This document shows positions 10,629-26,671 of a DNA stretch of 32,000 nt, one piece after another (the first letter of the stretch is position 1; every line of letters begins with the position of its first letter). The position numbers and the translations under genes were made by a program. A model generated the notes under the pieces. The model saw nothing but the letters and a program-made list of their open reading frames with translations. It was not told the DNA's origin and ran no database searches. Source of the DNA: an uncultured Acidimicrobiaceae bacterium (GTDB taxonomy: Bacteria > Actinomycetota > Acidimicrobiia > Acidimicrobiales > Palsa-688); contig CAVPBX010000007.1 in NCBI GenBank assembly GCA_963702305.1, positions 92,998 to 124,997 of the forward strand. The letters run 5' to 3'.

Positions 10629-13223
10629 TCAGGGCAGGATCTCAACGTACCCCTCCGTTCCATTGAGGCGGATCCGCTGCCGATCGCGGATGAGCCGGGT
10701 GGCTTGCTCGACGCCCACGACAGCCGGCAAGCCGTACTCCCGGGCGATGACTGCGCCATGGGTCATCAGGCCGCCGACCTCCGTCACCAGGCCCGTGATC
10801 GCGACGAACAGGGGCGACCAGCTGGGGTCGGTGTAGGCCGTGACCAGGATGTCGCCCGGCTCGAGATCGGCCTCGGCCATGTCCATGATGACGCGGGCCC
10901 GCCCCTCGATGATCCCGGCGGATACCGGCAAACCAACTAGCGCGCCGGTCGGCACGTCGTGGCGTCGGTACGCCCCGGCGACTACCTCGCCATCCGACGT
11001 AAACACCCGGGGCGGCGTCAGCGCTTGATACGACCTGAACGCGTCCTTGCGCTGGGAGATGAGCTCATCATCCGCGTGGTTCGTGCGCACGACGTCGTGG
11101 AACTCTTGGAACGTGAGGTAGTACATGTCTTCCTTCTCACGAAGCACACGCGCCTGCACGAGCCGCCCGGCCTCTTCCAGCAAAGCCTGCTTGTACACGA
11201 AGTAGCGGCTGACCATGCCGTACTTCGGATACTCCCGGTACCCGATGAAGGTCCGGACCCGGTCGATCATCCGCTTGACCTCATCCGCCTTACGCTCCCC
11301 GTCCGGCAAGTCCCCCAAGCGCGCCAGCAGCTCTTGTTCCTTCTCCCAGGCCTCCTGCCGGCCTTGCTCGAAGCGCCGCTCGCCGGCGCCCGGCTCGAAG
11401 TTCTTGATGTTGCCGAGGATCAGGGGCACGAGCGTGGAGGGGCGTTCGCTCCATCGTGGTCTCGTGATGTCGATCTCACCGACGCAGCGCATGCCGTACT
11501 TGTCGAGGTAGGCCCGGATGGCGTCGCGGGCTTCCCGCCCGCCCGTAAGTTTGGCCATCTCGTCCAAGAAACCGTCGTCGTCGATGTGTCGCAGAAGCGC
11601 CACCACCTCCGGATACGGACGGATCACGTCCGCGACGTCCAGGAGCGCGAGCCCCATCTCCGACGTGACGTTATGGGGGACAGACTGGGTGAGCGTGTCC
11701 GCCGCGTTCTTCTCGCCCAGCCACGCCTCCAGCTGCTCGTTCAGCCACCACGTGGCCTCCATCGCCGACATGAACACCTGATGGCTGCGCGGATCGAACA
11801 GGATCCGCCTCAGCTCTTGGATGTCCGCCAAGATGAAGTCGAGCAGCGCCGATCCGGACGTCGTCGCGATGTCGCGCTTCAAGGCGGCAATGGAGGCCTC
11901 GCTACGTCCGATCAGATCGGTGACGATGGCCGGATCGGTCTCGATCGGCGCTGGCGCGCCGCCAGCCGGCATCGCATTCGGGCCCTCGTCAGGGAGCGAC
12001 GGGATGAAGTCGTCGCGTTCGAGGATGGTCTCTAGCGCGTCCCCGATCAGCGGATCGCCCCTTCCCAGGACCTCCAAGAGACCGGCGCGACTCGCTGGCG
12101 ACGCCAGGCCCACGGCGACATCGACGAAGAGCCTCCCACCGGCCACGTACATCGGCCGAGGTGTGGTCAGCTGCCAGAAGGAGAGCCCCAGGGGCTTCAT
12201 CGCGTCGGTCATCATCTGCGCATGACCGACAGACACGTACACATGGTTCTCTTGGTCGCCGGCCGCAGGGATAGGAAACAGTGTGGTGATCGGCCGGCTC
12301 TGGACGATCCGGAAGCTGTCATCGACCAGGCACCATTCGATGTCCTGGGGGCGGCCGAAGTGCCCTTCGATCCGCCGTCCCAACTGCGCGACTCGCACGA
12401 CCTGCGCATCAGTCAGTGCTGGCTTCTCCTGACGCTCCGGCTCGATCGCCAGTTCCTGCGTCCCGCCTGCCGGCGAGGCGTGAATGGCCAGCTGCTTGGT
12501 GGCGACCGCCTTGGCGACGATCTCGCCGTCCCGCACCTGGTAGACGTCCGCGTTCACCCGGCCGGAGACCAGGGCCTCGCCGAGTCCGAAGGTGGCCTCC
12601 ACCGAGCTGACCTTCCGGTTTGACGTGACCGGGTCGGCCGTGAAGACGACGCCGGCCGCCTGCGGGAAGACCATCTGCTGCACCACCACGGCCATGTGGA
12701 CCTTCCGGTGGTCGAATCCATTCCGCAAGCGGTAGGTCACGGCCCGATCGGTGAACAGGGAGGCCCAGCACCGACTGACGTGCTCGAGGATCGCCGCTGG
12801 CCCCACGACGTTCAGGTACGTGTCCTGCTGGCCGGCGAAGGAAGCAGACGGCAAGTCCTCCGCCGTCGCACTCGATCGGACTGCGTAAGCAGCATGTTCG
12901 CCGAGCCCGGCGACCGAGCCGGTGATCGCCGCCGCCAGATCGTCGGGGATGGCAATCCCTTCGATGGTCCGGCGGATCTCCGCGCTGAGCGTGCGGATCG
13001 CCTCCCGGTCATCCGGGCTCAGGCGCGACAGCCGACCGAGCCGATCGTCGATCGACGGCGCGTTCGCCATGATCCGCCGGAAGGCGTCCGTCGTCACACA
13101 GAAGCCGGCCGGTACGCGGATGCCTTCGATCCGCGAAAGCTCCCCAAGGTGCGCGCCCTTGCCGCCAACAACCGCGACTTGCGTCCGGTCGATCTCCTGG
13201 AAACCCAGCACGTAGCTGCCCAT
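10629..13223 (-). CDS. rph: PEP-utilising enzyme of the rifampin phosphotransferase (RPH) type, also annotated as phosphoenolpyruvate synthase-like
   Basis: 864 aa. N-terminal ATP-grasp (VVGGKGAHLGEL, FAVRSSATAEDLP..SFAGQ). C-terminal swivel phosphohistidine domain (TDPSWSPLF...GGLMTHGAVIAREYGLPAVVG). This architecture and length fit Rph. Start at ATG 13223 with a GGAAGGTGG Shine-Dalgarno sequence. The 13418 extension was rejected. Confidence 0.75.
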   Translation of the reverse strand: MGSYVLGFQEIDRTQVAVVGGKGAHLGELSRIEGIRVPAGFCVTTDAFRRIMANAPSIDDRLGRLSRLSPDDREAIRTLSAEIRRTIEGIAIPDDLAAAITGSVAGLGEHAAYAVRSSATAEDLPSASFAGQQDTYLNVVGPAAILEHVSRCWASLFTDRAVTYRLRNGFDHRKVHMAVVVQQMVFPQAAGVVFTADPVTSNRKVSSVEATFGLGEALVSGRVNADVYQVRDGEIVAKAVATKQLAIHASPAGGTQELAIEPERQEKPALTDAQVVRVAQLGRRIEGHFGRPQDIEWCLVDDSFRIVQSRPITTLFPIPAAGDQENHVYVSVGHAQMMTDAMKPLGLSFWQLTTPRPMYVAGGRLFVDVAVGLASPASRAGLLEVLGRGDPLIGDALETILERDDFIPSLPDEGPNAMPAGGAPAPIETDPAIVTDLIGRSEASIAALKRDIATTSGSALLDFILADIQELRRILFDPRSHQVFMSAMEATWWLNEQLEAWLGEKNAADTLTQSVPHNVTSEMGLALLDVADVIRPYPEVVALLRHIDDDGFLDEMAKLTGGREARDAIRAYLDKYGMRCVGEIDITRPRWSERPSTLVPLILGNIKNFEPGAGERRFEQGRQEAWEKEQELLARLGDLPDGERKADEVKRMIDRVRTFIGYREYPKYGMVSRYFVYKQALLEEAGRLVQARVLREKEDMYYLTFQEFHDVVRTNHADDELISQRKDAFRSYQALTPPRVFTSDGEVVAGAYRRHDVPTGALVGLPVSAGIIEGRARVIMDMAEADLEPGDILVTAYTDPSWSPLFVAITGLVTEVGGLMTHGAVIAREYGLPAVVGVEQATRLIRDRQRIRLNGTEGYVEILP

Positions 13224-13323
13224 CCGTCCACCTTCCCCTGAGCCGCCTCGGGCGCCTCTTGTCCCACGGTCAAACGGGCGGACGCCTCCGGTCCGGCCTG
13301 TGGCGTGCATTGTCAGCACACAA

Positions 13324-13344
13324 GGGGTCCTTGCAACAAGCCCC
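13324..13344. promoter_or_regulatory. Imperfect palindrome GGGGTCCTTGCAACAAGCCCC about 100 bp upstream of rph; resembles the rifamycin-associated element (RAE)
   Basis: GGGG..CTTG pairs with CAAG CCCC, with a 2-nt bulge and a 3-nt centre. Its position upstream of a rifamycin-resistance-type gene matches published RAE behaviour as I recall it. I could not check the consensus here. Confidence 0.4.
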
Positions 13345-13560
13345 CCACCCTGGTGTACATTGCTTATGGCGGAAGGGTGAATCGGCATCCTTGGCGGCAC
13401 CAGAGCCGGGCACGTCACCGAAGCTGGGGCTTATGCCTCCGCAATGAAGCGCACGCCACGGGAGTCGCTTTGTGTCGAACCTCCACACCAAGGGGACAAC
13501 GTGGCGCTACGCGTTCCGAAGGCGGAGCTCAGCACCGACATGAGGGAATTCCCCTGATCG

Positions 13561-14670
13561 TCATCTGCCAGGGTGCGGTGGCGCGGCGGGGAGTTGCACG
13601 GTGACGCAGAGGCCGCCCGCGGCCCGGGGGGTGAGGGTGAGGGTTCCGTCGTGTGCTTGGGTGATGCTCTTGACGATGGCCAGGCCGAGGCCGACACCGG
13701 CGTGGTCGGTGCGTATGCGCTTGGAGCCGCGCTGAAACGGCTCGACCAGCGTCGAAACCAGCTGTGGGGTGAGCTGCTCGCCGGTGTTCTCGACCGTGAG
13801 CACCACCCTCTTGGGGTGGGCGCTGGTGGTGACCCAGACGGTGCCCTGTTCGGTCAGGTTGTGGACGATCGCGTTGTGTACGAGGTTCGTCGTCATCTGC
13901 AGCAGGAGGGCGGGTGAGCCGGTGGTGGGGGTGGTGTCGCCAGAGGTCTCGATGGTGAGGCCGCGCTTTTCTGCGAGGGGAAGGAGCGTTTCGGTGGCTT
14001 GTTCGGCGAGGAGGGACAGGTCGACGTGTTCTGGGGTGAAAGAGCGCTGGTCGGCCCGACTGAGCAGGAGCAGTGCTTCGGTGAGGTCGATCGCTCGGGT
14101 GTTGACGAAGTGGAGGCGGTCGACCAGTTCGTCGTGGCCGCAGCTTTGACCGTTGCGGGCCACCTCGAGAAGTGTTTGTGTGATGGCGAGCGGAGTGCGC
14201 AGTTCGTGGGAGGCGTTGGCTGCGAACCTCTGCTGTTCAGCGATCTGTGTTTCGAGCCGGGCGAGCATGGCATCGAAGGCGTCGGCGAGGTCGCGGAACT
14301 CGTCGCGGCGGCCCGGCAGCCGGATTCGGTGGGCGAGCGATCCGGTCGTGGCCGTGCGGGTGGCGTCGGTAATGCGAGTCAGGGGGGCGAGCATGCGGCC
14401 GGCAAGCAGCCACCCACCCACGAGACCGAACACCAGCAGGAAAGCCAACACGGCGGCTGCCCTGGGCGCGAAAACGTGCAGGAGGTTGGACCGAACGGGA
14501 AAGACGCCATGAATGGAGGTGTCGGCGTTGACGAGGAACGCACGGTCGGGGACGTACCGCAGGAGGAACAGCCACACGGCGGCGAGCAGCATGGCGCCGG
14601 CGAGCATGAGGAAGCCGGCGTAGCTGAGGGTGAGTTTGAGGCGAACGCTCAAACCTGGGGCTCTATCCAC
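13561..14670 (-). CDS. vanS: VanS-type sensor histidine kinase
   Basis: Two TM helices with a short loop of about 30 aa, a HAMP domain, the H-box NASHELRTPLA, and N/G boxes (LVHNAIVHN, GVGLGLAIV). GTG start at 14670 overlaps the vanR stop by 8 nt. Identity rests on its partner and its context next to vanHAX. Confidence 0.8.
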   Translation of the reverse strand: MDRAPGLSVRLKLTLSYAGFLMLAGAMLLAAVWLFLLRYVPDRAFLVNADTSIHGVFPVRSNLLHVFAPRAAAVLAFLLVFGLVGGWLLAGRMLAPLTRITDATRTATTGSLAHRIRLPGRRDEFRDLADAFDAMLARLETQIAEQQRFAANASHELRTPLAITQTLLEVARNGQSCGHDELVDRLHFVNTRAIDLTEALLLLSRADQRSFTPEHVDLSLLAEQATETLLPLAEKRGLTIETSGDTTPTTGSPALLLQMTTNLVHNAIVHNLTEQGTVWVTTSAHPKRVVLTVENTGEQLTPQLVSTLVEPFQRGSKRIRTDHAGVGLGLAIVKSITQAHDGTLTLTPRAAGGLCVTVQLPAAPPHPGR

Positions 14671-15358
14671 GGTCTCCTCCCTCACGCCCTGAGTCTGGGT
14701 GAGTGTCGATGCGGTACCCGACGCCGGCCACGGTGGCGATGAGCCAAGGTTCGCCAAGGCGTTTGCGCAGCGCCGAGACCGTGATGCGCACCGCGTTGGT
14801 GAACGGGTCCGCGTTCTCATCCCACGCCCGTTCCAGCAGATCTTCGGCGCTGACCACGCCGCCTTCGGCCGCCACCAGAACCTCGAGCACCGCGAACTGC
14901 TTCCGGGTCAGCGCGACGTAGCGGCCGTCGCGGTACACCTCGCGGCGGAACGCATCCAACCGCAGACCCGCGATCTCTCGCACCGGCGGCCGGTTGTGAG
15001 CCCGCCGGCGGTCGAGCGCTCTGAGACGAAGCACCAGCTCCCGCAGCTCGAATGGCTTGGTGAGATAGTCGTCAGCGCCGAGTCCGAACCCCGAGGCCTT
15101 GTCGTCAAGCCGGTCGGCAGCGGTGAGCATGAGGATCGGCATGCCGCTACCAGAAGCGACGATGCGCTTGGCGATCTCGTCGCCAGAGAGCCCGGGGATA
15201 TCGCGGTCAAGCACGGCGATGTCGTAGGCGTTGACGCCCAGCAGATGTAAAGCGGTGTCGCCGTCACCGGCGATGTCCGCGGCGATCGCTTCCAGGCGAA
15301 GACCATCGCGGATGGCTTCTGCCATATAGGGCTCGTCCTCGACGATCAACACACGCAC
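14663..15358 (-). CDS. vanR: VanR-type OmpR-family response regulator
   Basis: MRVLIVEDEPYMAEAIRDGLRLEAIAADIAGDGDTAL...DIAVLDRDIPG...LTKPF... followed by a winged-helix C-terminus. From memory it closely resembles actinomycete VanR. It is divergent from a vanH-type promoter. Confidence 0.85.
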   Translation of the reverse strand: MRVLIVEDEPYMAEAIRDGLRLEAIAADIAGDGDTALHLLGVNAYDIAVLDRDIPGLSGDEIAKRIVASGSGMPILMLTAADRLDDKASGFGLGADDYLTKPFELRELVLRLRALDRRRAHNRPPVREIAGLRLDAFRREVYRDGRYVALTRKQFAVLEVLVAAEGGVVSAEDLLERAWDENADPFTNAVRITVSALRKRLGEPWLIATVAGVGYRIDTHPDSGREGGDRG

Positions 15359-15454
15359 ACTCTCGCGATGCTAGGCGCCGGGGCATATCGTCGGCGTATC
15401 GAAAACCGCATACGGGCTGGTAACACCACGCTGCGTTGACTGGAGGCATGACCT
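15329..15454. repeat. Copy A of the vanR-vanH control region: vanR codons 1-10, an 89-bp divergent intergenic region, and a dead vanH start stub
   Basis: Aligns colinearly with 16843-16970 at roughly 80% identity by eye. It ends in GGAGGC-ATGACCT, a 12-codon ORF (15448-15486, MTYSDSQGSHDT*) homologous to the vanH start. Weaker similarity may extend to about 15478. Confidence 0.8.
15385..15401. promoter_or_regulatory. Candidate VanR box, copy A: ATATCG-N5-GTATCG (11-bp phased direct repeat)
   Basis: The hexamers start at 15385 and 15396. The box lies 27 nt from the vanR GTG and 47 nt from the stub ATG. It is conserved in copy B. Confidence 0.45.
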
Positions 15455-15582
15455 ACAGCGACTCCCAGGGTTCCCATGACACGTGACGAATCGGCCTATG
15501 CCGGGCACTCGGCGCGACCAACGGCCATGTCCGCATCGGACTCCTCTCCGAGGCCATCTACGTCATCACCAATGCCGCAGCC

Positions 15583-16818
15583 GTGACCCAGCAGCGCACC
15601 AGGCCCGGCCGCGACGCCGACTGCCTGCCGGAGGAGTACCTCCGTCTCGAGCGGCGGTCGGCTCGGCGCCCACCCGCCAGGGGCCGGCGGCGGAGGGGGC
15701 GGATGGCCGTCCGGGTCCTGTCGGTGGCCCTCGGCCTGCTCGTGCTGTTCCTCGGGGCGTCGGTGTACGGAGCCGCCACCACGCCGGGCAACCAGAACTT
15801 CAAGGCCAAATGGGCCGACTGGTTGCGGTCCCACCACGCCGCCTTCGTCGTCAAGCCACTGGAGCAGTGGTACTACAACAGCCAGGCCCCGGCCAAGGGT
15901 GGCGCTCCCAAGGCCCTCAACCGGATCCCGGCGGCCTCTGCCCACCCGGCGGGCACCTCGGCGGCACCCGCCGGCCTGCCCGCCCCCAGCCCGGTACCGC
16001 TGGTCGTATCACCGGCCCTCCCGGGTGAGGGCCAGTGGCAGCCCACGGGGCCGATCGTCGACGGCCGGGCCGCCAGTTACGTGGCCCAGTTCCGGGCCGA
16101 CACCATCTACACCAGCCAGATCACCTCGGCGGTCTGGATCGACCCCACCCGGCTGAGGATCCGACTCGTCCCCGGCGCCCAAGAGCCGGGCGGTACCTGG
16201 AGCGTGCCGCCCGACCTCACCGGCACGGCGGCCGCCCAGGCGGTGGCCGCCTTCAACGGGGGGTTCCGGTTCCAGGATGCCCACGGCGGGTTCTACCTGG
16301 GCGGTCGCACCGCCGTACCCCTGGTGAACGGCGCCGCGTCGGTGGTCATCTACAAGGACGGCCGGGTCAACGTCGGCGCCTGGGGCACCGACGTGGCCAT
16401 GACCCCCTCGGTCGAGGCCGTCCTGCAGAACCTGGTGCCGCTGGTCGACAACGGCCAGATCGCCCCCGACGCCACCTACCACGACACCCACATCTGGGGG
16501 AACACCCTCGGCGCCAACACCGTCGTGGCCCGCTCCGGGCTGGGGGTGACGACGTCGGGGGCGCTGATGTACGTGGCCGGCCCGGCCCTGACGGCCAAGA
16601 CGCTGGCCGAGTCGCTGCAGCGGGCCGGGGCAGTGCGGGGGATGACCCTCGACATCAACCCGGAGTGGGTTACGTTCAACTTCTACACCCACCCCGACCC
16701 CGCCGATCCCACCTCGATCACCGGAGCCAAGCTGTATCCGCAGATGCAGCGCTCGGCCGACCGGTACCTCGGCCCCACCGAGGAGTCGCGTGACTTCTTC
16801 TCCGTGTCGACCAGCTGA
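15583..16818 (+). CDS. Membrane-anchored phosphodiester glycosidase family (NAGPA/DUF2233-like) exo-protein
   Basis: Arg-rich N-terminus, TM helix VLSVALGLLVLFLGASVYG, then AAFNGGF...GGFYLGG, VARSGLGVT..GALMYVAGP, GMTLDINPEWV, typical of the bacterial phosphodiester glycosidase family. GTG 15583, or ATG 15703 as an alternative start. Confidence 0.7.
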   Translation: MTQQRTRPGRDADCLPEEYLRLERRSARRPPARGRRRRGRMAVRVLSVALGLLVLFLGASVYGAATTPGNQNFKAKWADWLRSHHAAFVVKPLEQWYYNSQAPAKGGAPKALNRIPAASAHPAGTSAAPAGLPAPSPVPLVVSPALPGEGQWQPTGPIVDGRAASYVAQFRADTIYTSQITSAVWIDPTRLRIRLVPGAQEPGGTWSVPPDLTGTAAAQAVAAFNGGFRFQDAHGGFYLGGRTAVPLVNGAASVVIYKDGRVNVGAWGTDVAMTPSVEAVLQNLVPLVDNGQIAPDATYHDTHIWGNTLGANTVVARSGLGVTTSGALMYVAGPALTAKTLAESLQRAGAVRGMTLDINPEWVTFNFYTHPDPADPTSITGAKLYPQMQRSADRYLGPTEESRDFFSVSTS

Positions 16819-16842
16819 ACGCGGAGGGCTTCTCCCTTGTCA

Positions 16843-16970
16843 GGGCTCGTCCTCGACCGTCAACACACACCCACACACTCGCGATCGTACGAACCGGAAC
16901 ATATCGTCGGTATATCGAAAACTACATACGTGCTGGCAACAGGCCGCGGCGTTGAATGGAGGCGTGACCT
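16843..16970. repeat. Copy B of the vanR-vanH control region: dead vanR 5-prime stub, promoter region, and the live vanH start
   Basis: The minus strand at 16866-16840 reads GTG TTG ACG GTC GAG GAC GAG CCC TGA (VLTVEDEP*), compared with vanR MRVLIVEDEP. Homology stops exactly after codon 10. The copy ends at the GGAGGC-GTGACCT vanH start. Confidence 0.8.
16901..16917. promoter_or_regulatory. Candidate VanR box, copy B: ATATCG-N5-ATATCG (perfect 11-bp phased direct repeat), 47 nt upstream of the vanH GTG
   Basis: The hexamers are at 16901-16906 and 16912-16917. The distance to the start codon is the same as in copy A. Confidence 0.45.
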
Positions 16971-17953
16971 CTGGCAAAGCAGATAGCGCCGTCCCAAGGG
17001 TGGGAATCACCATCTACGGGTGCGGGCCGGACGAAGCCCTTTTGTTCCGAGAGATGGCGCCTCGCTTTGGCGTCAAGCCAACTATCACCGATGCCGCGGC
17101 ATCAGATGCAACTATTGACTTGGCATCTGGGAATCGATGCGTCAGCGTCGGCCACAAGACTCAAATCTCAGGTGACATTCTGCTTGCGCTTCGCCAAGCC
17201 GGTGTTATGTACCTCTCCACTAGAAGTGTTGGATACAACCATATCGATGTCAAACTGGCGGAGAGCGTCGGCATCTCCGTTGAAAACGTCACCTATTCTC
17301 CGGACAGCGTTGCTGACTACACGTTGATGTTGATGCTCATGGCGGTGCGGAATGCCAAATCCACCATCAGCCGCGCCCAGGTTCATGATTACCGATTGAA
17401 TGAAGTACGAGGGAAAGAACTCCGCGACCTGACCATCGGAGTCATCGGAACAGGACACATCGGTGCCGCCGTGATGGACAGGCTGCGGGGGTTTGGTTGC
17501 CACGTACTGGCCTGTGACCGTTGTCCGAAGACCTCTGCCGAATACCTGCCTCTCGACGAGCTGCTACGGCAGAGCGACCTTGTGACGCTCCATACACCAC
17601 TCACCGCCGACACCCACCATCTGCTGAATCGTCAACGTATCGGGCAGATGAGGCACGGAGCATTCATTATCAATACGGGGCGTGGTGCACTTCTCGATAC
17701 CGAGGCCCTTGTCCCGGCGCTGGAGAGCGGCCGCCTCGGGGGTGCGGCGTTGGATGTCCTCGAAGGCGAGGAAGGAGTCTTCTACTCTGACCACAGAAGG
17801 AGACCCATTCAAAGCCAACTGTTGTTGCGGTTACAACAGTTACCGAATGTGCTGATTACTCCGCACACCGGCTACTACACCGATCACGCCCTGAGCGATA
17901 CCGTCGAAAACACGTTCCTCAATTGCCTGCGCTTTGAAAGAAGAGAAGCGTGA
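16964..17953 (+). CDS. vanH: VanH, D-specific alpha-keto acid (pyruvate to D-lactate) dehydrogenase
   Basis: ITIYGCG...GYNHID...IGVIGTGHIGAAV (NAD-binding GxGxxG)...NTGRGALLD...ITPHTGYYT. GTG start with a GGAGG Shine-Dalgarno sequence. GTGA coupling to the ligase gene. About 329 aa. Confidence 0.9.
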   Translation: MTSGKADSAVPRVGITIYGCGPDEALLFREMAPRFGVKPTITDAAASDATIDLASGNRCVSVGHKTQISGDILLALRQAGVMYLSTRSVGYNHIDVKLAESVGISVENVTYSPDSVADYTLMLMLMAVRNAKSTISRAQVHDYRLNEVRGKELRDLTIGVIGTGHIGAAVMDRLRGFGCHVLACDRCPKTSAEYLPLDELLRQSDLVTLHTPLTADTHHLLNRQRIGQMRHGAFIINTGRGALLDTEALVPALESGRLGGAALDVLEGEEGVFYSDHRRRPIQSQLLLRLQQLPNVLITPHTGYYTDHALSDTVENTFLNCLRFERREA

Positions 17954-18984
17954 ATAGGTTGAGAGTCGCAGTCATCTTCGGAGGTTGCTCCGAAGAACAT
18001 CCCATCTCGGTCAAATCCGCGCAGGAGGTGGCAACACACCTCGACCTTGAGAAGTATGAACCGTTCTATATCGGGATCACAAGAAGCGGTACCTGGAAGC
18101 TCTGTGACGGCCCTGACGCAGGCTGGGACAACGGCAGCTGCCGTCCGGCGATGCTGTCACCGGACAGAGGCCTACACGGATTGCTTGTCCTGAAGCAGGG
18201 CCACTACGAAACGATCAGTCTGGACCTCGTCTTCCCCGTGCTCCACGGCAAACTCGGCGAGGACGGGGCGATACAAGGTCTGCTGGAGCTGTCCGGCATC
18301 CCCTACGTAGGCTGCGATGTCCAAAGTTCTGCCCTGTGCATGGACAAATCTCTTGCCTATCTCGTTGCGAGCAACGCGGGAATTGCTATACCAAGGTTCT
18401 GGACCGTCACGGCGAACGAGGATCTCGACCCCGACCGGATTACTTATCCAGTCTTCGTGAAGCCGGCCCGTTCGGGTTCATCGTTCGGCGTCAGTCGTGT
18501 AAGTGAGAAACAAGAGCTGCCGAGTGCGGTTGAGACCGCAAGGCAATACGACTCGAAAGTGTTGATCGAAGAGGTTGTTGTCGGCAGCGAGGTGGGATGC
18601 GCGATCTTCGGGAACGACACGGATTTGATTGCAGGAGAGCCAGATCGAATCTCGCTAGCTCATGGGTTCTTTAGAATCCATCAGGAGAATCAGCCTGAAA
18701 GCGGTTCTGAGAACTCCACTTTCATCGTTCCCGCCGACATCTCGACAGAGGCGCGCGACCTCGTTCAGGAAACAGCAAAGACCCTATATCGAGCCTTGGG
18801 ATGCAGGGGACTCTCGCGAGTGGACATGTTCCTGAAGGAAGACGGAACGGTAGTCCTGAACGAGGTCAACACGCTGCCCGGTATGACCTCATACAGCCGT
18901 TATCCGAGAATGATGGCAGCCGCGGGACTGTCGCTGGCCGATGTGATCGACCGGATCGTGTCGTTGGCGTTGAACGGAAAGTGA
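17950..18984 (+). CDS. vanA: VanA-type D-alanine--(R)-lactate ligase
   Basis: MNRLRVAVIFGGCSEEHPISVKSA...EKYEPFYIGITRSGTWK...GEDGAIQGLLELSGIPYVGCDVQSSALCMDKSL...YPVFVKPARSGSSFGV...FRIHQENQPESGSEN...NEVNTLPGMTSYSRYPRMMAAAG is near-colinear with enterococcal VanA as I remember it, including the omega-loop and the HQE region characteristic of D-Ala-D-Lac ligases. Confidence 0.92.
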   Translation: MNRLRVAVIFGGCSEEHPISVKSAQEVATHLDLEKYEPFYIGITRSGTWKLCDGPDAGWDNGSCRPAMLSPDRGLHGLLVLKQGHYETISLDLVFPVLHGKLGEDGAIQGLLELSGIPYVGCDVQSSALCMDKSLAYLVASNAGIAIPRFWTVTANEDLDPDRITYPVFVKPARSGSSFGVSRVSEKQELPSAVETARQYDSKVLIEEVVVGSEVGCAIFGNDTDLIAGEPDRISLAHGFFRIHQENQPESGSENSTFIVPADISTEARDLVQETAKTLYRALGCRGLSRVDMFLKEDGTVVLNEVNTLPGMTSYSRYPRMMAAAGLSLADVIDRIVSLALNGK

Positions 18985-19613
18985 TGATGCACGAGGACTT
19001 TGTCTTTGTCGACGAGATCGTATCCGGAGTACGTTGGGATGCGAAGTACGCCACGTGGGACAATTTCACTGGCAAGCCGGTGGACGGATATCTAGTAAAT
19101 CGGATCGTCGGCTCGCGGACCTTGTGTGCGGCCCTGGGGACAGCGCGAGAGGTAGCAGGATCCCTTGGCTTCGGCTTGCTGCTCTGGGACGGGTATCGTC
19201 CTCAACGCGCCGTGGATTGCTTCCTGCGCTGGTCCAGACAGCCGGAAGATGACCGGACGAAACGAAGACACTATCCTCACATCGACAGGTCCGAGATCGT
19301 CGCACAAGGATATGTAGCTGAGAAGTCGGGCCACAGTCGGGGCAGCACCGTTGACTTGACGCTCTATCACTTGGCCACCGGTGAACTCGCTCCAATGGGC
19401 GGGGACCATGACCTGATGGATCCGATCTCACATCATGGAGCAAAGGGAATCACGCAAGTTGAAGCGAGAAACCGGCAGCGCCTTCGTTCGATCATGGAGT
19501 CCGGCGGGTTTAGATCCTACGATTGCGAGTGGTGGCATTACACACTGAAGGACGAACCCTATCCGAGCACCTATTTTGATTTTCCCATCACCACTGTTGA
19601 GCCAATTGAATAG
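18984..19613 (+). CDS. vanX: VanX D-Ala-D-Ala dipeptidase
   Basis: DAKYATWDNFTG, LLLWDGYRP, SGHSRGSTVDLTL (Zn ligands), CEWWHYTL. The ATG overlaps the ligase stop codon (TGATG). Confidence 0.92.
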   Translation: MMHEDFVFVDEIVSGVRWDAKYATWDNFTGKPVDGYLVNRIVGSRTLCAALGTAREVAGSLGFGLLLWDGYRPQRAVDCFLRWSRQPEDDRTKRRHYPHIDRSEIVAQGYVAEKSGHSRGSTVDLTLYHLATGELAPMGGDHDLMDPISHHGAKGITQVEARNRQRLRSIMESGGFRSYDCEWWHYTLKDEPYPSTYFDFPITTVEPIE

Positions 19614-20812
19614 ACTATGTCTGGGGGAGAGGTGCGGGTCGACGGGATGGTGACGGTGCAGGAGAGGCCTCCGTCGTTACGGGGGCGGGCGGTGGTGGTA
19701 CCGCCGTGGATCTCGGCAATGGACGCCACGATGGTCAGGCCCAGGCCGAAGCCGTCGTTCGACGAGCGGTTGTTGAGCCGCTGGAATGGATGGAAGATGC
19801 GGTCGGCGTCCGCCGGGCTGATGATTTGGCCAGTGTTTGCGACGGTTAGCTGGCTGTTTCCGGCTGCGGTACGGGTGCTGATCCAGATGTCGCCGGAAGC
19901 GACGTTGTAGCGCACCGCGTTGTCGACCAGGTTGGCGATGAGGCGTTCGACGAGCACCGGATCGCCGGATATGACGGCGCGTTCCAGCGTGGCGTGCACT
20001 TGCCGGTCGCTCAGGCCGGCGGTGTCGAGGATGTCTTCGGCGACCGTGGCCAGGTCGATCTCCTCGTGGACCGCGAGGCCGCGCTCGTTGCGGGCGAGGA
20101 TGAGTAGCGCGCCGATGAGGTGCTCGGCGTGATCCACGGCGGCGCGGATGTCGGCCGCCATGGCTCGCAGCTCGCCGGGGGTGCTGTCAGGGTTGCCGAC
20201 CACGACGTCGATCGTCGTGCCCATGACGGCGAGGGGGGTGCGCAGTTCGTGGGAGGCGTTGGCGATGAACCGCTGTTGGGCTTCGAACGCGGTCTGGAGC
20301 CGGCCGAGCATGTCGTCGAACGTCTCGGCCAGCTCTCGGAGTTCGTCCCGGGGACCTCTCGGCGCGATCCGCGCCGAGAGGTTGTGTTGCGAGGCGGCGC
20401 GGGCGGCCGCGGTGATCCGGTGTACTGGGCGCAGCGCCCGCCCGGCGAAGATCCATCCGAGGATGGCGGCGAGGGCGATGACGACGCCGAGGGTGATCAG
20501 CGAGTACTGCAGCAGGCGCGTCAGGGTGAGGGCGCGCTGCGCTTGCGCGCCCAGGTCGGCCAGAAAAGACCCGGGGCAATTGGAGGAGCCGAGGAAGCGC
20601 TTGTCGCCGCTCAGGTACGCGGACTTGCAGTGAGCCAAGAAGCTGGCCGGAACGCCACTATACGAAGCAGGTGGCTGGGCCTGCCTGGCCACCCCTAGCT
20701 GAGCCACCAGGGTGTAGCTGACGGCCACGATGATCCCCCCACACAGGGCGAACAGGCCGGTGTAGATCAGGGTCAGGCGGGCTCGGACGGTCAGGCGCGG
20801 ACCGCGGGTCAC
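19571..20812 (-). CDS. Sensor histidine kinase (HK2), paralogous to VanS
   Basis: TM1 LTLIYTGLFALCGGIIVAVSYTLVA, an extracytoplasmic loop of about 60 aa with two Cys residues, TM2, HAMP, and the H-box NASHELRTPLA. GTGA overlap with RR2. Its last 14 codons plus the stop codon are antisense to the vanX 3-prime end (43-bp convergent overlap). Confidence 0.8.
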   Translation of the reverse strand: MTRGPRLTVRARLTLIYTGLFALCGGIIVAVSYTLVAQLGVARQAQPPASYSGVPASFLAHCKSAYLSGDKRFLGSSNCPGSFLADLGAQAQRALTLTRLLQYSLITLGVVIALAAILGWIFAGRALRPVHRITAAARAASQHNLSARIAPRGPRDELRELAETFDDMLGRLQTAFEAQQRFIANASHELRTPLAVMGTTIDVVVGNPDSTPGELRAMAADIRAAVDHAEHLIGALLILARNERGLAVHEEIDLATVAEDILDTAGLSDRQVHATLERAVISGDPVLVERLIANLVDNAVRYNVASGDIWISTRTAAGNSQLTVANTGQIISPADADRIFHPFQRLNNRSSNDGFGLGLTIVASIAEIHGGTTTARPRNDGGLSCTVTIPSTRTSPPDIVYSIGSTVVMGKSK

Positions 20813-21453
20813 ATTCTGTATCCCTTGCCTACGACGGTCTCGATCAACGGCGGGTCGCCGAGCTTGCGCCGCAGCCGGGTCATAGTGACGGAGACGATAT
20901 TGCTGAACGGGTCGGAGTTGGCGTCCCACACCTGTTCGAGCAGCTCCTCTGCGCTGACCAAGGCGCCGTCAGCGGCCAGCAGCGTCTCGAGGATCCCGAA
21001 CTCTTTGCGGGTCAGCGTGAGCGGGCTGCCGGCGCGCATGGCGCGGTGGCGGGCGCGGTCGACGGTGAGGTCCTCGCGGACCAATACTGGCGGCGCTGAC
21101 GGCGCTCGGCGCGACAGCGCCCGCACGCGGGCGACGAGCTCGGCGAATGCGAATGGCTTGGGCAGGTAGTCGTCCGCGCCCAGTTCCAGCCCGTCGACGC
21201 GGTCATCGACGTCCCCGGCGGCGGTCAGCATGAGGATCCTCGGGCCGGAGCCGGCTACGTCCCGGCAGACCCGGTCCCCATGGAGGACCGGTAGGTCGCG
21301 GTCGAGCACGATTACGTCATAGGCCGTCTGGTCGGCGGCGTCCAGTGCGGCCGCGCCGTCATACACGACGTCGGTGGCCATCCCGGCCTGACGCAGCCCT
21401 TGAGCGATCCGGTCGGCGAGCGTCGCATGGTCTTCGACCACCAGGACGCGCAT
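20809..21453 (-). CDS. OmpR-family response regulator (RR2)
   Basis: MRVLVVEDHATLADRIAQGL...YDVIVLDRDLPVLHGD...LPKPF...LTRKEFGILETL...GKGYRM. ATG 21453 chosen; the 21720 extension was rejected. Confidence 0.85.
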   Translation of the reverse strand: MRVLVVEDHATLADRIAQGLRQAGMATDVVYDGAAALDAADQTAYDVIVLDRDLPVLHGDRVCRDVAGSGPRILMLTAAGDVDDRVDGLELGADDYLPKPFAFAELVARVRALSRRAPSAPPVLVREDLTVDRARHRAMRAGSPLTLTRKEFGILETLLAADGALVSAEELLEQVWDANSDPFSNIVSVTMTRLRRKLGDPPLIETVVGKGYRM

Positions 21454-21539
21454 CAGGCCATTATGCGCTGCTCGACATGACATCCGTGCAACATCGCCTG
21501 TAGCGCTGATGTCACCCGCCGGAGCGTACAACTGCAGGC

Positions 21540-22214
21540 ATGAAGCCAGTTCATCCTGCCGGCCGCCCTTGCAGAGGCGACGGCCCGCTGCGCCTCGTCC
21601 GGTCGAACGTCGAGGGCACGGGATGGATCGTCGGCGGGCGGGGAGCCTGGCGGCCCAGGAGCGTTTCGCTGACCGCGCTGTTGATTGTCGTGTTGGGTCT
21701 GACCGCGTGCGGGGGCGCATCGTCGCACCGCCCGGGAACTGCCAGCGCCGTCGGTACCACCACCAGCGCCTCGGCCGGTGGCAGTACGCAAGCAGGCGGA
21801 CTCCTGGCGTTCGCCTCCTGTATGCGCTCGCACGGCGTGCCGAACTTCCCCGACCCGACCGCCAGCGGTGGGATCCCGAAGCCTGCCGTTGTCAGCGCAT
21901 TCCAGGCGGTCGGCAACGCCCAGGCGCAGGCGGCCCAGAACGCCTGCAACCACTTGCTCCCCGCCGGAGGGTTGAGTGGGCAGGCCAGCCAGACGGTCAC
22001 CGCCCAAGACCAGCAGGACTACCTCAACGCTGCTGCCTGTATGCGCTCGCACGGGATCACCAACTTCCCCGACCCCGTCTTCTCCAACGGCCACGTCAAC
22101 CTCAACATCCCCTCCAGCATCGACAGCAAGTCACCGCAGTTCACCCAGGCCGCCCAGACCTGCACAAAGCTCATCCCCGCGGGACTCCCCTACAGCAGGG
22201 GCTCCGGAGGATGA
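21540..22214 (+). CDS. Lipoprotein with two tandem CMRSHG-x3-FPDP ... C repeat units, function unknown
   Basis: Lipobox LGLTAC. Unit 1 is FASCMRSHGVPNFPDP...AAQNACNHLLP. Unit 2 is AAACMRSHGITNFPDP...AAQTCTKLIP. Divergent from RR2. The 3-prime end overlaps the RR3 3-prime end by 25 bp. Confidence 0.7.
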   Translation: MKPVHPAGRPCRGDGPLRLVRSNVEGTGWIVGGRGAWRPRSVSLTALLIVVLGLTACGGASSHRPGTASAVGTTTSASAGGSTQAGGLLAFASCMRSHGVPNFPDPTASGGIPKPAVVSAFQAVGNAQAQAAQNACNHLLPAGGLSGQASQTVTAQDQQDYLNAAACMRSHGITNFPDPVFSNGHVNLNIPSSIDSKSPQFTQAAQTCTKLIPAGLPYSRGSGG

Positions 22215-22888
22215 CGCGATGTCAGCGTTGGGTCGATGATCCGGTAGCCGACCCCGGGGATGGTTTCGATCACGTCGGGGGGGCCGAGTTTGCGGCGCAG
22301 CCGGCCGATGGTGACCTGAACCGTTTTGGTGAAGGGGTCGGTGTGTTCGTCCCAAGCCTGTTCGAGGAGGTCCTCGGTGCTGAGGGTGGCGGGCGAGGCC
22401 CGCATGAGCGCTTCGAGCACGGCGAACTCCTTGGTGGTCAGCTCGCACGGCTGGCCGGCCCGGGAGGTGGTCCGGCGGAGCGGGTCGAGCTCGAGGTCGG
22501 CCGCTTTGAGGATGCGGGGCTGAGCGGTGGGTTTTCGTCGGGCCAGGGCCCGCAGCCGCAGGACCAGCTCAGGGAAGTGGAACGGTTTGGGCAGGTAGTC
22601 ATCCGCGCCGAGCCCGAGCCCGCTGACCCGATCCGCGGGGGCGTCGGCCGCGGTGAGCATGAGCACCATGGCCGGGTCATCGCTCTCGGTGATCATCTTG
22701 CAGATGGTGTCGCCGTGGATACCGGGAAGGTCGCGGTCCAGTACGACGACGTCGTAGCGGTTGATGTCCAGCTTGGCGGCGGCGTCGAGCCCCGTGTAGG
22801 CGACGTCGACCGCCATGCCTCGGTCTCGGAGGCCCTCGGCGATGTCGTCGGCCAGTCGCCGCACGTCTTCCACGACCAGCACCTTCAT
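22190..22888 (-). CDS. OmpR-family response regulator (RR3)
   Basis: MKVLVVEDVRRLADDIAEGL...YDVVVLDRDLPGIHGD...LPKPF...LTTKEFAVLEAL...GVGYRI. ATGA overlap with the upstream kinase gene. Confidence 0.85.
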   Translation of the reverse strand: MKVLVVEDVRRLADDIAEGLRDRGMAVDVAYTGLDAAAKLDINRYDVVVLDRDLPGIHGDTICKMITESDDPAMVLMLTAADAPADRVSGLGLGADDYLPKPFHFPELVLRLRALARRKPTAQPRILKAADLELDPLRRTTSRAGQPCELTTKEFAVLEALMRASPATLSTEDLLEQAWDEHTDPFTKTVQVTIGRLRRKLGPPDVIETIPGVGYRIIDPTLTSRHPPEPLL

Positions 22889-24142
22889 GGCAACTCTCGA
22901 TTCGGGCAGGGGGGTGCGGCGTGAGGAAGCTCGACCGCCACGCGCATCCCTCCTTGTGGGCGGGCCCCGAGTTCGATGGTTCCGTGGTGGGCGGCGGCGA
23001 TGGCTGCGACGATGGACAGACCGAGCCCGAGCCCGCCGTCGGCGCCGGTCCGCTCGCCGCCGCCTCGCCAGAACGGTCGGCCCAACTGGCCGGCCTCGGC
23101 GGGTTCGAGGATGGGACCGCTGTTCTCGACGATCAAGCGGGCGGATGGACCCTCAGTCGTGGTTGTGACCTGCACCCACCCGCCGGGCTGGTTGTAGCGG
23201 ATGGCGTTGTCGATCAGGTTGACGGCGAGACGGGCAAGGAGGGTTCGGCTGCCGGCGACCTCCGCCTCGTCAAGGCGGCGGTGCAGGGTCACGTCGGCTG
23301 CGACGGCACCGTCGGCTCGGGTGTCGAGAGCGTCCGCGGTGAGGTGGGGCAACGAGACCGTCGTCAGGTCGTCGATCATCCCCCGCTGGGCTCGGGCCAG
23401 CACCAGGAAGCTCTCCACCAGCCGTTCGGCCTGGTCGAGCCCCTCGCGGACCTTGGCCGAAAGCACCGACGCGTCCTTCGAAATGGGCGGAGACTTGGCC
23501 GCGGCAACATCCAGGGAGGTGCGCATCATGGCGAGCGGGGTGCGAAGCTCGTGCGAGGCGTTGGCCACGAAAGCTCGCTGGGCGCCGAAGGCGCCCTCCA
23601 GCCGGGCGACGAGCCCGTCGATGGTGTCAGCCAGGTCCGTGATCTCGTCACTCGGGCCGGCCAAGCCAAGCCGCTCGTGGAGGTTCTCCTCGGAGATGTG
23701 CCGCGCCGTGGAGGTGATGTGCCGCAGCGGGCGAAGCACCCGACCGGCCATGAGCCATCCCAGCACGACGGAGGCCAGGGCCATGACGCCCAACGCCACC
23801 GCGAACCACACCAGCAGAGTGCGCAAATCCGCGGAGTGCTGTGCGCTTGTCGCGCGCGCGCACCACGCCGGCGCCAGCCGGGAGGATGTGGACGGTGTTC
23901 GAGGGCCCAGGCGAGTGAATGACTGGGCTGCGTGGGGAGGTGATGTGGACGGTGGCCGCGAACGGGAAGCGGGCCACGAACAGGTAACTGATACCAAGCA
24001 GGGCCGCGCCGCAGAGAACGAACAGCGCCCCATAGGCGAGGGCGAGGCGCACCCGCACCGTCCGCCGGGGCAGGCGAGCGCGGGCCAACCGGCGGGCCAC
24101 ACAGGCGTAGGGTCCGAAGGCCACTCCGGTCACGGGTCGCAC
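22885..24142 (-). pseudogene. Sensor histidine kinase (HK3), apparently frameshifted in the extracytoplasmic loop
   Basis: TM1 (VRVRLALAYGALFVLCGAALLGISYLFVA) is in the frame of ORF 23648..24142. TM2, HAMP, the H-box (NASHELRTPLA) and the ATPase domain are in the frame of ORF 22885..24102. The frames switch near the (CG)5 tract at 23851-23861. Confidence 0.65.
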
Positions 24143-25006: not shown

Positions 25007-26671
25007 ATGGCATCCGATAGCGCAGAGATCAGGTCCGCCGCCGTGTCGCACCAGCAAGCGGGCCCGGCCACCGAGCAGCTCCCGGCCGCACCGCACGATC
25101 CCGGCGCCGTGCCAGCCGGCCGCCGTCGGCGTGGGGCGCCCTGGGTGATCGCGGTGGTCGGGGTGCTGGTCGCGGCCGGCGTTGTCGTGGCGATCACCAA
25201 ACCCTTCGCCACGGGAGGAACAGCCAGTCCGGGAGTCGCAGCGAACACCGACGCCACGGGGATCTACACGGTGGCCCGCCAGGACCTGTCCTCCCAGACC
25301 CAGGTGTCGGCGACCCTCGGTTACGCCGGGTCGTTCAGCATCGCGGCCCCGTCAGGGGCGAGCGCCCAGGAGGTGGCCCAGGCCCAGGAGACCGTAACCG
25401 GGGACCAGCAGAGCCTGGCCGCGGACGAGCAGGTCCAATCCGACAAGTCGAGCGCGGATGACCAGGCGATCGTGGCGGCCCAGACGGCTGTCAACACCGA
25501 CCAGTCCATGCTCAGTTCGGACCAGGCCAAGCAGTCCCAGGACTGCGCCGGGTCGGTGGCGTCCAGCCCGGCGTGCACCCAGGATGCCCAGAAGGTCAGC
25601 GGAGACCAGACGCAGCTGACCCAGGCCAACCAGCAGCTGGACAGCGCTCGGTCGACGGCGACCCTAGACCACGACCAGAACCAGGCCAAGGTGGCCTCCG
25701 ACCAGACCAAGCTGGCGGGCGACCAGGCCACCCTGGCGTCGCTGCAAGCCGCCGCAGTGACCCCGGGCGCGACCTACACCTCCCTGCCCGCGGTGGGCGA
25801 CATCATCAAGGAGGACCAGCCGGTCTACTCACTCACCAACGAACCGGTGCCGCTCCTCTACGGGTCGATCCCCGCCTCTCGGGCGTTCTACCTCGGCATG
25901 TCCGACGGCGCCGATGTAGGCCAGCTGACCGGCGACCTGATCGCTCTCGGTTACGGCGCCGGACTGCCCCACAGCAACCACTATTCCTCGGCCACCGCCG
26001 CCTCGGTCGAACGTTGGCAGGGCGCCCTCGGCCTGGAGGCGACCGGCGAGATCCTGCTCGGCCAAGTGGTCTTCGAGCCCGGCCCCATCCGGGTCACGTC
26101 GGTCACGCCTCCGCTCGGCGAGTCCATCGGGGGCGGGGGCGGCATTGGCAGTGGCGGCGGCGGCGGCGGTGGTGGCGGCACCGTGCTGTCGGCGACCACG
26201 ACTACACGCCAGGTCAGCATCGCCCTCGACGCATCTCAACAGTCCGAAGTGGCGGTCGGCGACAAGGTGACCATCACCCTGCCCAACAACCAGAACACGC
26301 CAGGGGTCGTCTCCTCAGTGGGTACCGTCGCCACGACGCCCTCCTCGAGCGGCTCCGGCGGCTCGGGACCTTCGAGCCCCACCATCACGGTGCTGGTGAA
26401 CCCGACCGACCCGGCCGCCACCGGAACCTGGGACCAGGCGCCGGTGAACGTGACCATCACCACCGGAACGGTCACCAATGCCCTGGTCGTACCTATCGCC
26501 GCTCTGCGGGCCAAATCGGGCGGCGGTTACGCGGTCGAAGTCGCGGGCGCCGACGGCACCCATCGCCTGGTGTCGGTCAGCCTGGGCCTCTTCGACGACG
26601 CCGACGGCAGGGTCCAGGTCAGTGGGACCACCTTGGCCGCCGGCCAGCACGTCGTGGTGCCGAACCTTTGA
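25007..26671 (+). CDS. MacA/HlyD-type membrane-fusion (periplasmic adaptor) protein with an inserted peptidoglycan-binding domain
   Basis: N-terminal TM helix, a Q/D-rich coiled-coil hairpin, PG_binding_1-like GADVGQLTGDLIALGY...SVERWQGALGLEATGEILLGQVVF, a Gly tract, and a C-terminal beta-barrel segment (ALVVPIAAL...GYAVEV). Confidence 0.8.
   Translation: MASDSAEIRSAAVSHQQAGPATEQLPAAPHDPGAVPAGRRRRGAPWVIAVVGVLVAAGVVVAITKPFATGGTASPGVAANTDATGIYTVARQDLSSQTQVSATLGYAGSFSIAAPSGASAQEVAQAQETVTGDQQSLAADEQVQSDKSSADDQAIVAAQTAVNTDQSMLSSDQAKQSQDCAGSVASSPACTQDAQKVSGDQTQLTQANQQLDSARSTATLDHDQNQAKVASDQTKLAGDQATLASLQAAAVTPGATYTSLPAVGDIIKEDQPVYSLTNEPVPLLYGSIPASRAFYLGMSDGADVGQLTGDLIALGYGAGLPHSNHYSSATAASVERWQGALGLEATGEILLGQVVFEPGPIRVTSVTPPLGESIGGGGGIGSGGGGGGGGGTVLSATTTTRQVSIALDASQQSEVAVGDKVTITLPNNQNTPGVVSSVGTVATTPSSSGSGGSGPSSPTITVLVNPTDPAATGTWDQAPVNVTITTGTVTNALVVPIAALRAKSGGGYAVEVAGADGTHRLVSVSLGLFDDADGRVQVSGTTLAAGQHVVVPNL
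26129..26179 (+). repeat. GGN/GGC trinucleotide tract encoding GGGGGIGSGGGGGGGGG inside the adaptor protein
   Basis: Read directly: ggg ggc ggg ggc ggc att ggc agt (ggc)5 ggt ggt ggc ggc. Confidence 0.9.

Follow-up and report, generated by a model that had tools for sequence, protein, structure and literature searches.

A NAGPA-fold membrane protein gene between vanR and vanH as a candidate accessory gene of a glycopeptide-resistance cluster in Acidimicrobiales

Genes and duplicated promoter of the van locus

The gene considered here lies in a 32,000-nucleotide stretch of DNA (the window) from contig CAVPBX010000007.1 of an uncultured Acidimicrobiaceae bacterium, and it encodes a membrane-anchored protein with the fold of NAGPA, which is a phosphodiester glycosidase. 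As first described, the open reading frame (ORF) 15583-16818 starts at a GTG codon and has 411 residues, and it sits between vanR and vanH of a vanRS-vanHAX cluster, a position that the original prediction had given and that the Pfam and NCBIfam assignments of the flanking genes bear out. By its sequence context the gene is a new candidate accessory gene of the van cluster, and the sequence makes it probable that it is a VanR-controlled member of the van regulon. That it serves as a lineage-specific accessory gene of vanRS-vanHAX glycopeptide-resistance clusters in Acidimicrobiales, by the mechanism proposed below, is the best explanation found, and it is held tentatively.

The sensor kinase and response regulator genes are read on the reverse strand, and the gene, vanH, vanA and vanX on the forward strand (Table 1). 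The scores with the VanS-O model (486.6 bits against an allele-specific cutoff of 720) and with the VanR-O model (463.4 bits against 505) stay below their cutoffs, both being far above those with all other regulator models, and VanR proteins from other van clusters are 87-94% identical to that of the window. The vanS start is likely GTG 14670, which has GGAGGAG ahead of it; on a reading of the sequence the longest ORF would reach 14820, and the gene call for vanS in the related locus L174 has 369 residues. The N-terminal extension of VanH shows an internal deletion when aligned with related clusters, and the vanX start overlaps the vanA stop (TGATG).

The stretch 15300-15454 recurs in the same orientation at 16814-16970 with about 80% identity, and each of the two holds a copy of the vanR/vanH-type intergenic promoter. 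A 23-nucleotide box, CATATCGTCGGNRTATCGAAAAC, which contains the direct repeat TATCG-N6-TATCG, is present in exactly two copies in the window, one before the gene and one before vanH, while none is expected by chance in shuffled sequences even with three mismatches allowed. The core of the first box, which is placed 177 nucleotides upstream of the gene's start, is identical to that of the box before vanH, and the box is essentially invariant over 11 aligned van intergenic regions. Among 80 metagenomic van loci, of which 49 could be tested on the vanH side and 21 on the vanR side, it is found upstream of vanH in 40 and about 24 nucleotides from the vanR start in 18. Since the box is conserved and tracks the starts of vanH and vanR, it is the best candidate for the VanR operator, in line with the binding of OmpR-family regulators to direct repeats.

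The two copies of the promoter have different histories. Judging by the alignments, the copy beside vanR is the original bidirectional vanR-vanH intergenic region, in which the vanH start codon is still present with about four codons after it; in canonical clusters ATGACCTACAGCGAACC... runs in frame into vanH. The leader that follows the vanH remnant is not conserved in orthologous loci, and blastn homology with the loci L169 and L070 begins only at 15571-15578. The copy before vanH carries a remnant of the 5' end of vanR, which aligns with the vanR 5' end of the first copy and of other clusters (78.6% in blastn against the vanR of L070). The original prediction, which had placed the gene directly downstream of a vanH-type promoter copy with a conserved direct-repeat box, thus stands as to the box upstream of the gene and has to be turned around as to the copies, the gene's one being the original and that of vanH carrying the vanR remnant. 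Scans for a consensus sigma-70 promoter and for terminators over 15250-17100 gave nothing, and read-through from the gene into vanHAX is possible because no terminator was found between the two units.

Table 1. Coordinates of the van genes, promoter elements and remnants in the window
Feature	Position	Strand	Description
vanS, sensor histidine kinase	13561-14670	-	Pfam HAMP, HisKA, HATPase_c; best NCBIfam model VanS-O
vanR, OmpR-family response regulator	14663-15358	-	Pfam Response_reg, Trans_reg_C; best NCBIfam model VanR-O
Bidirectional vanR/vanH-type intergenic promoter, copy 1	15359-15448		aligns with vanR-vanH intergenic regions of 9 other clusters; repeats 16878-16963
Putative VanR operator box 1	15384-15406	+	CATATCGTCGGCGTATCGAAAAC; TATCG-N6-TATCG direct repeat
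Vestigial vanH 5' end	15449-15487	+	ATG ACC TAC AGC, the MTYS start of long-form VanH; 12-codon mini-ORF ending in TGA
Leader between vanH remnant and gene start	15488-15582	+	about 95 nucleotides
NAGPA-fold membrane-anchored protein gene	15583-16818	+	411 residues, GTG start; between vanR and vanH
Family motif D357-I-N-P-E-W362	16651-16668	+	appears to take the place of the NAGPA DGGGS loop
vanR 5'-end remnant	16822-16877	-	about 18 codons, out of frame; begins 3 nucleotides past the gene's stop
van intergenic promoter, copy 2, upstream of vanH	16878-16963		repeat and alignment
Putative VanR operator box 2	16900-16922	+	CATATCGTCGGTATATCGAAAAC
vanH, D-lactate dehydrogenase	16964-17953	+	Pfam 2-Hacid_dh_C; NCBIfam VanH models 533.9 bits, cutoff 540
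vanA-type D-Ala-D-Lac ligase	17950-18984	+	NCBIfam D_ala_D_lac equivalog 622.3 bits, above cutoff 550
vanX, D-Ala-D-Ala dipeptidase	18984-19613	+	NCBIfam dipept_VanX 395.3 bits, above cutoff 320

Linkage to van clusters and the other genes behind the same box

Homologues of the protein are found almost only in Acidimicrobiales and Acidimicrobiia, the nearest named genome being Acidiferrimicrobium sp. IK. The host is a member of Acidimicrobiales and not a classical actinomycete, and the van clusters that carry the gene belong to one group of soil Acidimicrobiales. Orthologues linked to van genes, with 86-95% identity, occur in six lineages, of which four have vanHAX downstream and two lie on contigs that stop short of it. 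The window group includes L170-L172, which are 99% identical to the window protein and belong to the same population. L173 (95.3%) has vanHAX and a murF-like gene downstream, L174 (94.6%) has vanSR upstream and vanH downstream, L169 (91.5%) has vanR upstream and vanHAX downstream, and L070, from Acidiferrimicrobium sp. IK (92%), has vanSR upstream and a contig end 150 nucleotides past the gene. The most distant one, L001 (86%), has an operon in the order NAGPA-like gene, vanH, vanA, vanX and murF-like gene, and the stop codon of the first is one nucleotide from the vanH ATG (TGAcATG). In a neighbour-joining tree the sequences of the window, L070 and L001 form one clade, whose sister groups lack linkage to van genes.

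Each lineage has its own spacer from the gene to vanH: it holds the vanR remnant in the window and a remnant of a LuxR-type helix-turn-helix gene in L169, and it measures 617 nucleotides in L173, about 900 in L174 and one in L001. L169, L170 and L174 each have two boxes, and L001 has none in the single-nucleotide gap before vanH. The gene is kept in every lineage despite the rebuilt spacer, and vanS diverges fast while the NAGPA-like gene and vanR stay conserved. The ratio of nonsynonymous to synonymous substitution rates (dN/dS) is 0.20 against L001, which indicates that the gene is under purifying selection.

Some of these loci have peculiarities of their own. At L070 6600-10135 three frames are needed to read the NAGPA-like gene and two to read vanS; RefSeq gives fragments of 158 and 109 residues, and the broken frames are either decaying genes or sequencing errors. 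L171 1-3448, aligned with window 13582-17597, is 99% identical from 15360 on and misses 14723-15359, which is almost all of vanR; its vanS allele is only 92% identical in DNA, and the locus represents either a natural deletion of vanR or a chimeric assembly. The MurF-like Mur-ligase genes that follow vanX in two of the NAGPA-linked clusters are located at L001 3844-5229 and L173 5032-5925.

The vanHAX genes form an island of low guanine-cytosine (GC) content at 16964-19613, with GC 0.56 and GC at third codon positions (GC3) of 0.63-0.67, while the NAGPA-like gene has 0.72 (GC3 0.93) and vanRS 0.66, and the same contrast is seen in L001. This suggests that vanHAX has a history different from that of vanRS and the NAGPA-like gene, and the trees are ambiguous on this point. 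An independent swap of vanHAX agrees with the synonymous distance (dS) between window and L001, which is 0.29 for the gene and about 1.0-1.16 for vanHAX, and with the order of VanH identities, which does not match that of the gene's identities; against it, the extreme GC3 of the gene (0.93) depresses dS. The neighbour-joining tree of VanA places the three linked clusters in a six-member clade with L089, L114 and L138, which also speaks against a swap, and in the trees of VanH and VanX they do not fall together.

In related clusters the same box and start-codon module precedes other genes, namely those for a membrane-anchored S11 DD-carboxypeptidase, VanY, MurF, an ABC ATPase and YceG, so the set of accessory genes is wider than the vanJ/staP, vanK and vanY-type genes listed originally. 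The S11 DD-carboxypeptidase or VanY gene is divergent from vanR and that of MurF from vanH, and several of the encoded proteins open with a vanH-derived LTG(S/G)M... sequence ('LTGSM' or 'LTGGMTY'). Because the cargo varies and several members retain starts derived from vanH, the promoter and start codon appear to be a module that repeatedly captured different wall-related genes, and the NAGPA-like gene is, by its sequence context, a new cargo in that series. The reuse of the box is seen in the metagenomic van loci L095-L098, L118, L132, L141, L152, L163-L168 and others. At L160 245-2960 a gene for a polytopic membrane protein of 429 residues and a YceG (MltG-like) gene are inserted between vanR and vanH; the promoter is duplicated there as in the window, the box and the MTYS start are retained in both copies, and the case is independent.

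Beyond the cluster, a gene for a rifamycin-inactivating phosphotransferase is located at 10629-13418 (-), just past vanS, and scores 1597.7 bits with the RIF_Ptrans_rph equivalog, whose cutoff is 999; since it adjoins vanS, the van cluster lies in a small multi-drug resistance neighbourhood. Two more OmpR-type regulator and kinase pairs follow vanX at 19571-21720 (-) and 22190-24102 (-), and their best NCBIfam models are again VanR-O and VanS-O, with weak scores and about 50% identity to VanR. Further on are a PG_binding_1 protein (25007-26671) and a MacB/FtsX-type ABC transporter (25573-28685), which together with the two pairs make up a run of envelope-stress modules.

Architecture, fold and family of the protein

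The protein begins with a cytoplasmic tail of residues 1-41 (nucleotides 15583-15705), which has about 12 arginines within residues 22-40, followed by a transmembrane segment at residues ~42-66 (15706-15780), two conserved outside helices at residues 67-100, a linker rich in proline and alanine, and a NAGPA-fold domain at residues ~141-411 (16003-16815). In the AlphaFold2 model a long helix covers residues 34-66, with the predicted local distance difference test (pLDDT) above 90 over 41-60. The positive-inside rule predicts that the N-terminus is in the cytoplasm and the catalytic domain outside the cell, so the arginine-rich tail, single membrane helix and extracytoplasmic domain of the original prediction are all recovered. 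An LPxxY motif in the tail is kept across the family, and the first 35 outside residues (TPGNxxFxAKWADWLRSHHA...E..YY), which are predicted to be helical, are nearly invariant across it; by analogy with the propeptide of NAGPA, these conserved parts may serve in docking or autoinhibition. In an alignment of 46 homologues many polar residues of the outside domain are invariant, as would be expected of an active site.

Gene callers place the start at M41, giving a protein of 371 residues (P0001). This was rejected as the true start despite the GGAGG ahead of it, which arises from the arginine codons themselves. Conservation among orthologues opens about 10 nucleotides before the GTG, the preceding 30 being about half mismatched, and GTG 15583 is favoured over M41 because this conservation and the LPxxY motif both begin there.

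Two lines of evidence place the protein in the NAGPA fold, as the original prediction had proposed from the letters alone. The Pfam NAGPA model (PF09992) matches at 26.2 bits against a gathering cutoff of 25, with residues 219-357 aligned to profile positions 2-137 of 169, and it is also matched by 37 of 44 distant family members; no NCBIfam model matches the 411-residue protein. The structural model, built with AlphaFold2 on 46 homologues (pLDDT 81.6, predicted template modelling score 0.80) and compared with the Protein Data Bank (PDB) by Foldseek, has as best match the DUF2233 structure 3OHG, with E 3.6e-11, probability 1.00 and a target-normalised template modelling score of 0.61. The vertebrate NAGPA catalytic domains 6PKY, 6PKU, 6PKI and 6U11 follow with E of about 1e-7 to 1e-9 and probability 1.00, and the target-normalised scores against NAGPA and DUF2233 structures range over 0.52-0.61 at an identity of only 14-18%.

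A key loop of NAGPA is replaced in this family. In NAGPA the loop 286-DGGGS-290 is reported to be strictly invariant from human to bacteria, to bind GlcNAc and phosphate and to be essential for the recognition of GlcNAc-1-phosphate (PMC13474241, a structure paper of 2026). The motif D357-I-N-P-E-W362, invariant in the 46 aligned homologues, appears to stand in its place: LDINPEW is present in 107 of the 120 closest members and LD[ILMV]NxxW in all 120 and in 94 of 150 representatives at 50% identity, with LD(I/L/M)(N/H)xxW occurring more widely. D357 is nearly invariant and in the model ends strand 350-357, with a loop after it, and the Pfam match stops at profile position 137, which corresponds to D357, in every scanned member with a reported NAGPA match; this residue is a candidate equivalent of the catalytic aspartate D286 of human NAGPA. 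The family is, by sequence and predicted fold, a diverged branch of the NAGPA fold, and the chemistry of the protein is probably unlike that of canonical NAGPA.

The family comprises 2875 clusters at 50% identity (E <1e-3), with several paralogues per genome. Of 80 genomic homologues, 24 have a histidine kinase within three genes and 12 a response regulator. The idea that the gene was ancestrally tied to the regulator beside it was considered and rejected, the two-component systems beside other members being only about 35-41% identical to VanR. PAP2, a superfamily that includes undecaprenyl-pyrophosphate phosphatases, is the only recurrent fusion partner in the family; of the 150 representatives 44 are long, and 8 of these have an N-terminal PAP2 domain. 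One distant member has an SLH wall-binding domain. Some non-van members (L024, L033, L035, L045 and others) recur beside three gene families which, judged by eye from sequences of cluster representatives, resemble a membrane flavoprotein of the ferric-reductase type (11 loci), ApbE (6 loci) and an FMN-binding protein (5 loci), and a second, more distant paralogue is often near such members (6 loci).

Proposed role, alternatives and comparison with known systems

The proposed mechanism starts with VanS, which, as in VanRS systems generally, would sense the glycopeptide and phosphorylate VanR. Phosphorylated VanR would bind the TATCG-N6-TATCG box before the gene, whose geometry and conservation are observed, and the former vanH promoter would fire through the vanH remnant and the leader into the gene, while the second box would drive vanHAX. 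The product would be inserted by its single helix with the N-terminus inside, which puts the NAGPA-fold domain at the outer face of the membrane. There it would act on the sugar-1-phosphate head group of a wall precursor linked to polyprenyl-(pyro)phosphate, most plausibly lipid II ending in D-Ala-D-Ala, or another undecaprenyl-pyrophosphate-linked sugar trapped when the glycopeptide blocks polymerisation. Cleavage of the glycosidic C1-O bond, as in NAGPA, would free undecaprenyl-pyrophosphate for recycling, with the result that the target of the drug would be purged and carrier lipid made available for D-Ala-D-Lac precursors. A polyprenyl-(pyro)phosphate-sugar substrate is favoured because of the fold, the PAP2 fusions, the membrane-proximal tether and the cargo genes found in the same slot; this specific chemistry is nonetheless the doubtful part of the proposal.

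Several observations weigh against this explanation. The Pfam match is marginal and short at its C-terminal end, and a sequence search of the PDB that used the family profile and the catalytic domain as queries returned no NAGPA or DUF2233 chain; the matches to a designed Kelch repeat and to lectins in the same search were taken as chance. DGGGS is absent from the window protein and from 270 family members (120 close matches and 150 representatives), because of which the chemistry of NAGPA is not simply transferable, as the original prediction had done in expecting sugar-1-phosphodiester cleavage from family membership, and catalytic chemistry may differ or be lost. The PAP2 fusions that were examined belong to an LDIH sister branch, which shares only about 28-34% identity with P0121, a representative of the LDINPEW type, so the substrate drawn from them by analogy is indirect. 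Relatives at 75-85% identity sit in non-van contexts, which include envelope-stress genes (a penicillin-binding protein, L,D-transpeptidase, PspA and MprF-like proteins), an operon with an unrelated regulator and kinase, and housekeeping genes; these are paralogue-level relatives, however, and the same gene in the same position, which the original prediction had named as counting against it if present in relatives lacking van genes, was not found in such relatives. About 30% of the family members adjoin unrelated two-component systems, which a signalling role would fit as well, and two frameshifts interrupt the copy of Acidiferrimicrobium sp. IK. Finally, tblastn and the family hidden Markov model detected the gene in none of 80 metagenomic van clusters whose VanA is 79-85% identical to that of the window. 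Co-occurrence with van clusters is thus seen in the six lineages and does not extend to these clusters; the linkage is conserved yet confined to one lineage, and the gene is not generally needed for vanHAX function.

The last points bring up the possibility that the gene is a passenger, a common envelope gene of Acidimicrobiales that recombined between vanR and vanH and is transcribed from the van promoter with no part in resistance. Such a history would suit a large family with several paralogues per genome and a mosaic locus, with its remnants of vanR and vanH, the GC difference between vanHAX (0.56) and the gene (0.72) and lineage-specific spacers, as well as the absence from the 80 related clusters and the frameshifts of L070. 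It is unlikely all the same, since the gene is retained beside vanR, vanHAX or both in six lineages at 86-95% identity though the downstream junction was rebuilt each time, dN/dS is 0.20, the coupling to vanH in L001 is tight, and the promoter box is preserved ahead of the gene.

If the gene does contribute to resistance, the protein could instead release wall glycopolymers, cutting a linkage of the GlcNAc-1-phosphate-6-MurNAc type in teichoic-acid-like or other polymers and remodelling the wall surface under glycopeptide stress. NAGPA, whose fold the protein resembles, cleaves GlcNAc-alpha-1-P-6-Man, a bond with the same topology as the linkage unit of wall polymers, the catalytic domain is predicted to be outside the cell and the distant member with an SLH domain would bind the wall; set against this, the GlcNAc-1-P recognition loop has been replaced, neither LCP ligases nor teichoic-acid genes recur around the 80 homologues, the short tether holds the domain near the membrane and not in the wall, and PAP2, the one fusion partner that recurs, is a phosphatase of lipid phosphates. 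This alternative is quite unlikely, and for the linkage units of teichoic acid or arabinogalactan, which the original prediction had put forward as targets, nothing specific was found, the PAP2 fusions and the same-slot genes pointing to peptidoglycan precursors or lipid carriers.

It is very unlikely that the protein is an auxiliary of signalling which binds or processes a wall-derived ligand and tunes VanS, as LpqB does with MtrB and CseA with CseC, and confers no resistance itself: kinases and regulators do lie within three genes in 24 and 12 of the 80 homologue loci, in divergent, co-directional and convergent arrangements, P0005 is in an apparent operon of NAGPA-like gene, regulator and kinase, the LPxxY motif and juxtamembrane helices (TPGN..F.AKWADWLR) could touch a kinase, and vanS diverges fast beside a conserved gene and vanR, but the other box-driven genes in the slot encode enzymes of peptidoglycan metabolism and not signalling parts, the PAP2 fusions speak for an enzyme that acts on lipids, the outside domain is rich in invariant polar residues like an active site, and related, presumably functional van clusters do without the gene.

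The accessory role in the van cluster can be carried further, into a long shot. A diverged NAGPA-fold glycosidase, with D-I-N-P-E-W as its active-site loop, would cut the MurNAc-1-pyrophosphate bond of the D-Ala-D-Ala lipid II trapped by the glycopeptide, undecaprenyl-pyrophosphate would pass to recycling of the PAP2 type, and the wider family beside two-component systems would provide general carrier-lipid salvage for envelope stress in Actinomycetota. If true, this would be the first glycopeptide-resistance helper that destroys the lipid-bound target of the drug from outside the cell. No paper in the literature collection that was searched ties the NAGPA-like family to glycopeptide resistance.

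The accessory role, if true, would extend the accessory genes of van clusters by a new kind, and an uncharacterised family of about 2900 clusters at 50% identity with an altered catalytic loop would gain a predicted regulator, inducer and phenotype. The vanH promoter with its start codon would be a portable module that captures different wall enzymes in different soil lineages, which bears on the diversification of the environmental glycopeptide resistome. In a survey of 2021 no van genes were reported in 216 genomes of Acidimicrobiales (PMC8698665), whereas van clusters are shown here to be present in this order.

Among known systems, NAGPA, the 'uncovering enzyme', and the DUF2233 proteins (6PKU, 6PKY, 3OHG) are the closest in structure. 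They share with the window protein the fold, the FNGGF start of the domain and, as far as the profile match and the model show, an aspartate at the end of the strand before the key loop, and NAGPA is likewise tethered to a membrane with its catalytic domain on the non-cytoplasmic side. The tether of the window protein is N-terminal and that of NAGPA C-terminal, however, the window family has D-I-N/H-x-x-W throughout instead of DGGGS, and the window protein adds the juxtamembrane two-helix module and an arginine-rich C-terminal tail (MQRxADRYLGPTxESRDFF).

PAP2-type undecaprenyl-pyrophosphate phosphatases of the BcrC/PgpB class are tied to resistance to cell-wall antibiotics through carrier recycling. 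Members of this superfamily are fused to relatives of the window protein in eight family representatives, the fusions examined being those of the sister branch, while the window protein itself has no PAP2 domain. In a computational preprint VanZ is proposed to act on the flipped head group of lipid II and recycle canonical precursors, and NAGPA domains are joined to the lipid-II-cleaving TelC domain in toxin fusions (10.1101/2025.01.14.632903); both proposals resemble ours in the substrate or the domain and concern different protein families.

VanY (M15B), the S11 DD-carboxypeptidases, MurF and YceG are alike in their slot, divergent from vanR or behind a duplicated vanH promoter and start module, and unlike in that their peptidoglycan substrates are known, the window protein being from an uncharacterised family. 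VanJ/StaP of Streptomyces, an accessory membrane protein that depends on VanR and has a domain outside the cell, confers teicoplanin resistance. The fold of VanJ/StaP is unrelated and the window gene is restricted to an Acidimicrobiales lineage, but each is a single addition to an actinobacterial van cluster, has a VanR-type promoter to itself and encodes a membrane-anchored protein with a putative extracytoplasmic enzyme domain outside the core D-Ala-D-Lac pathway.

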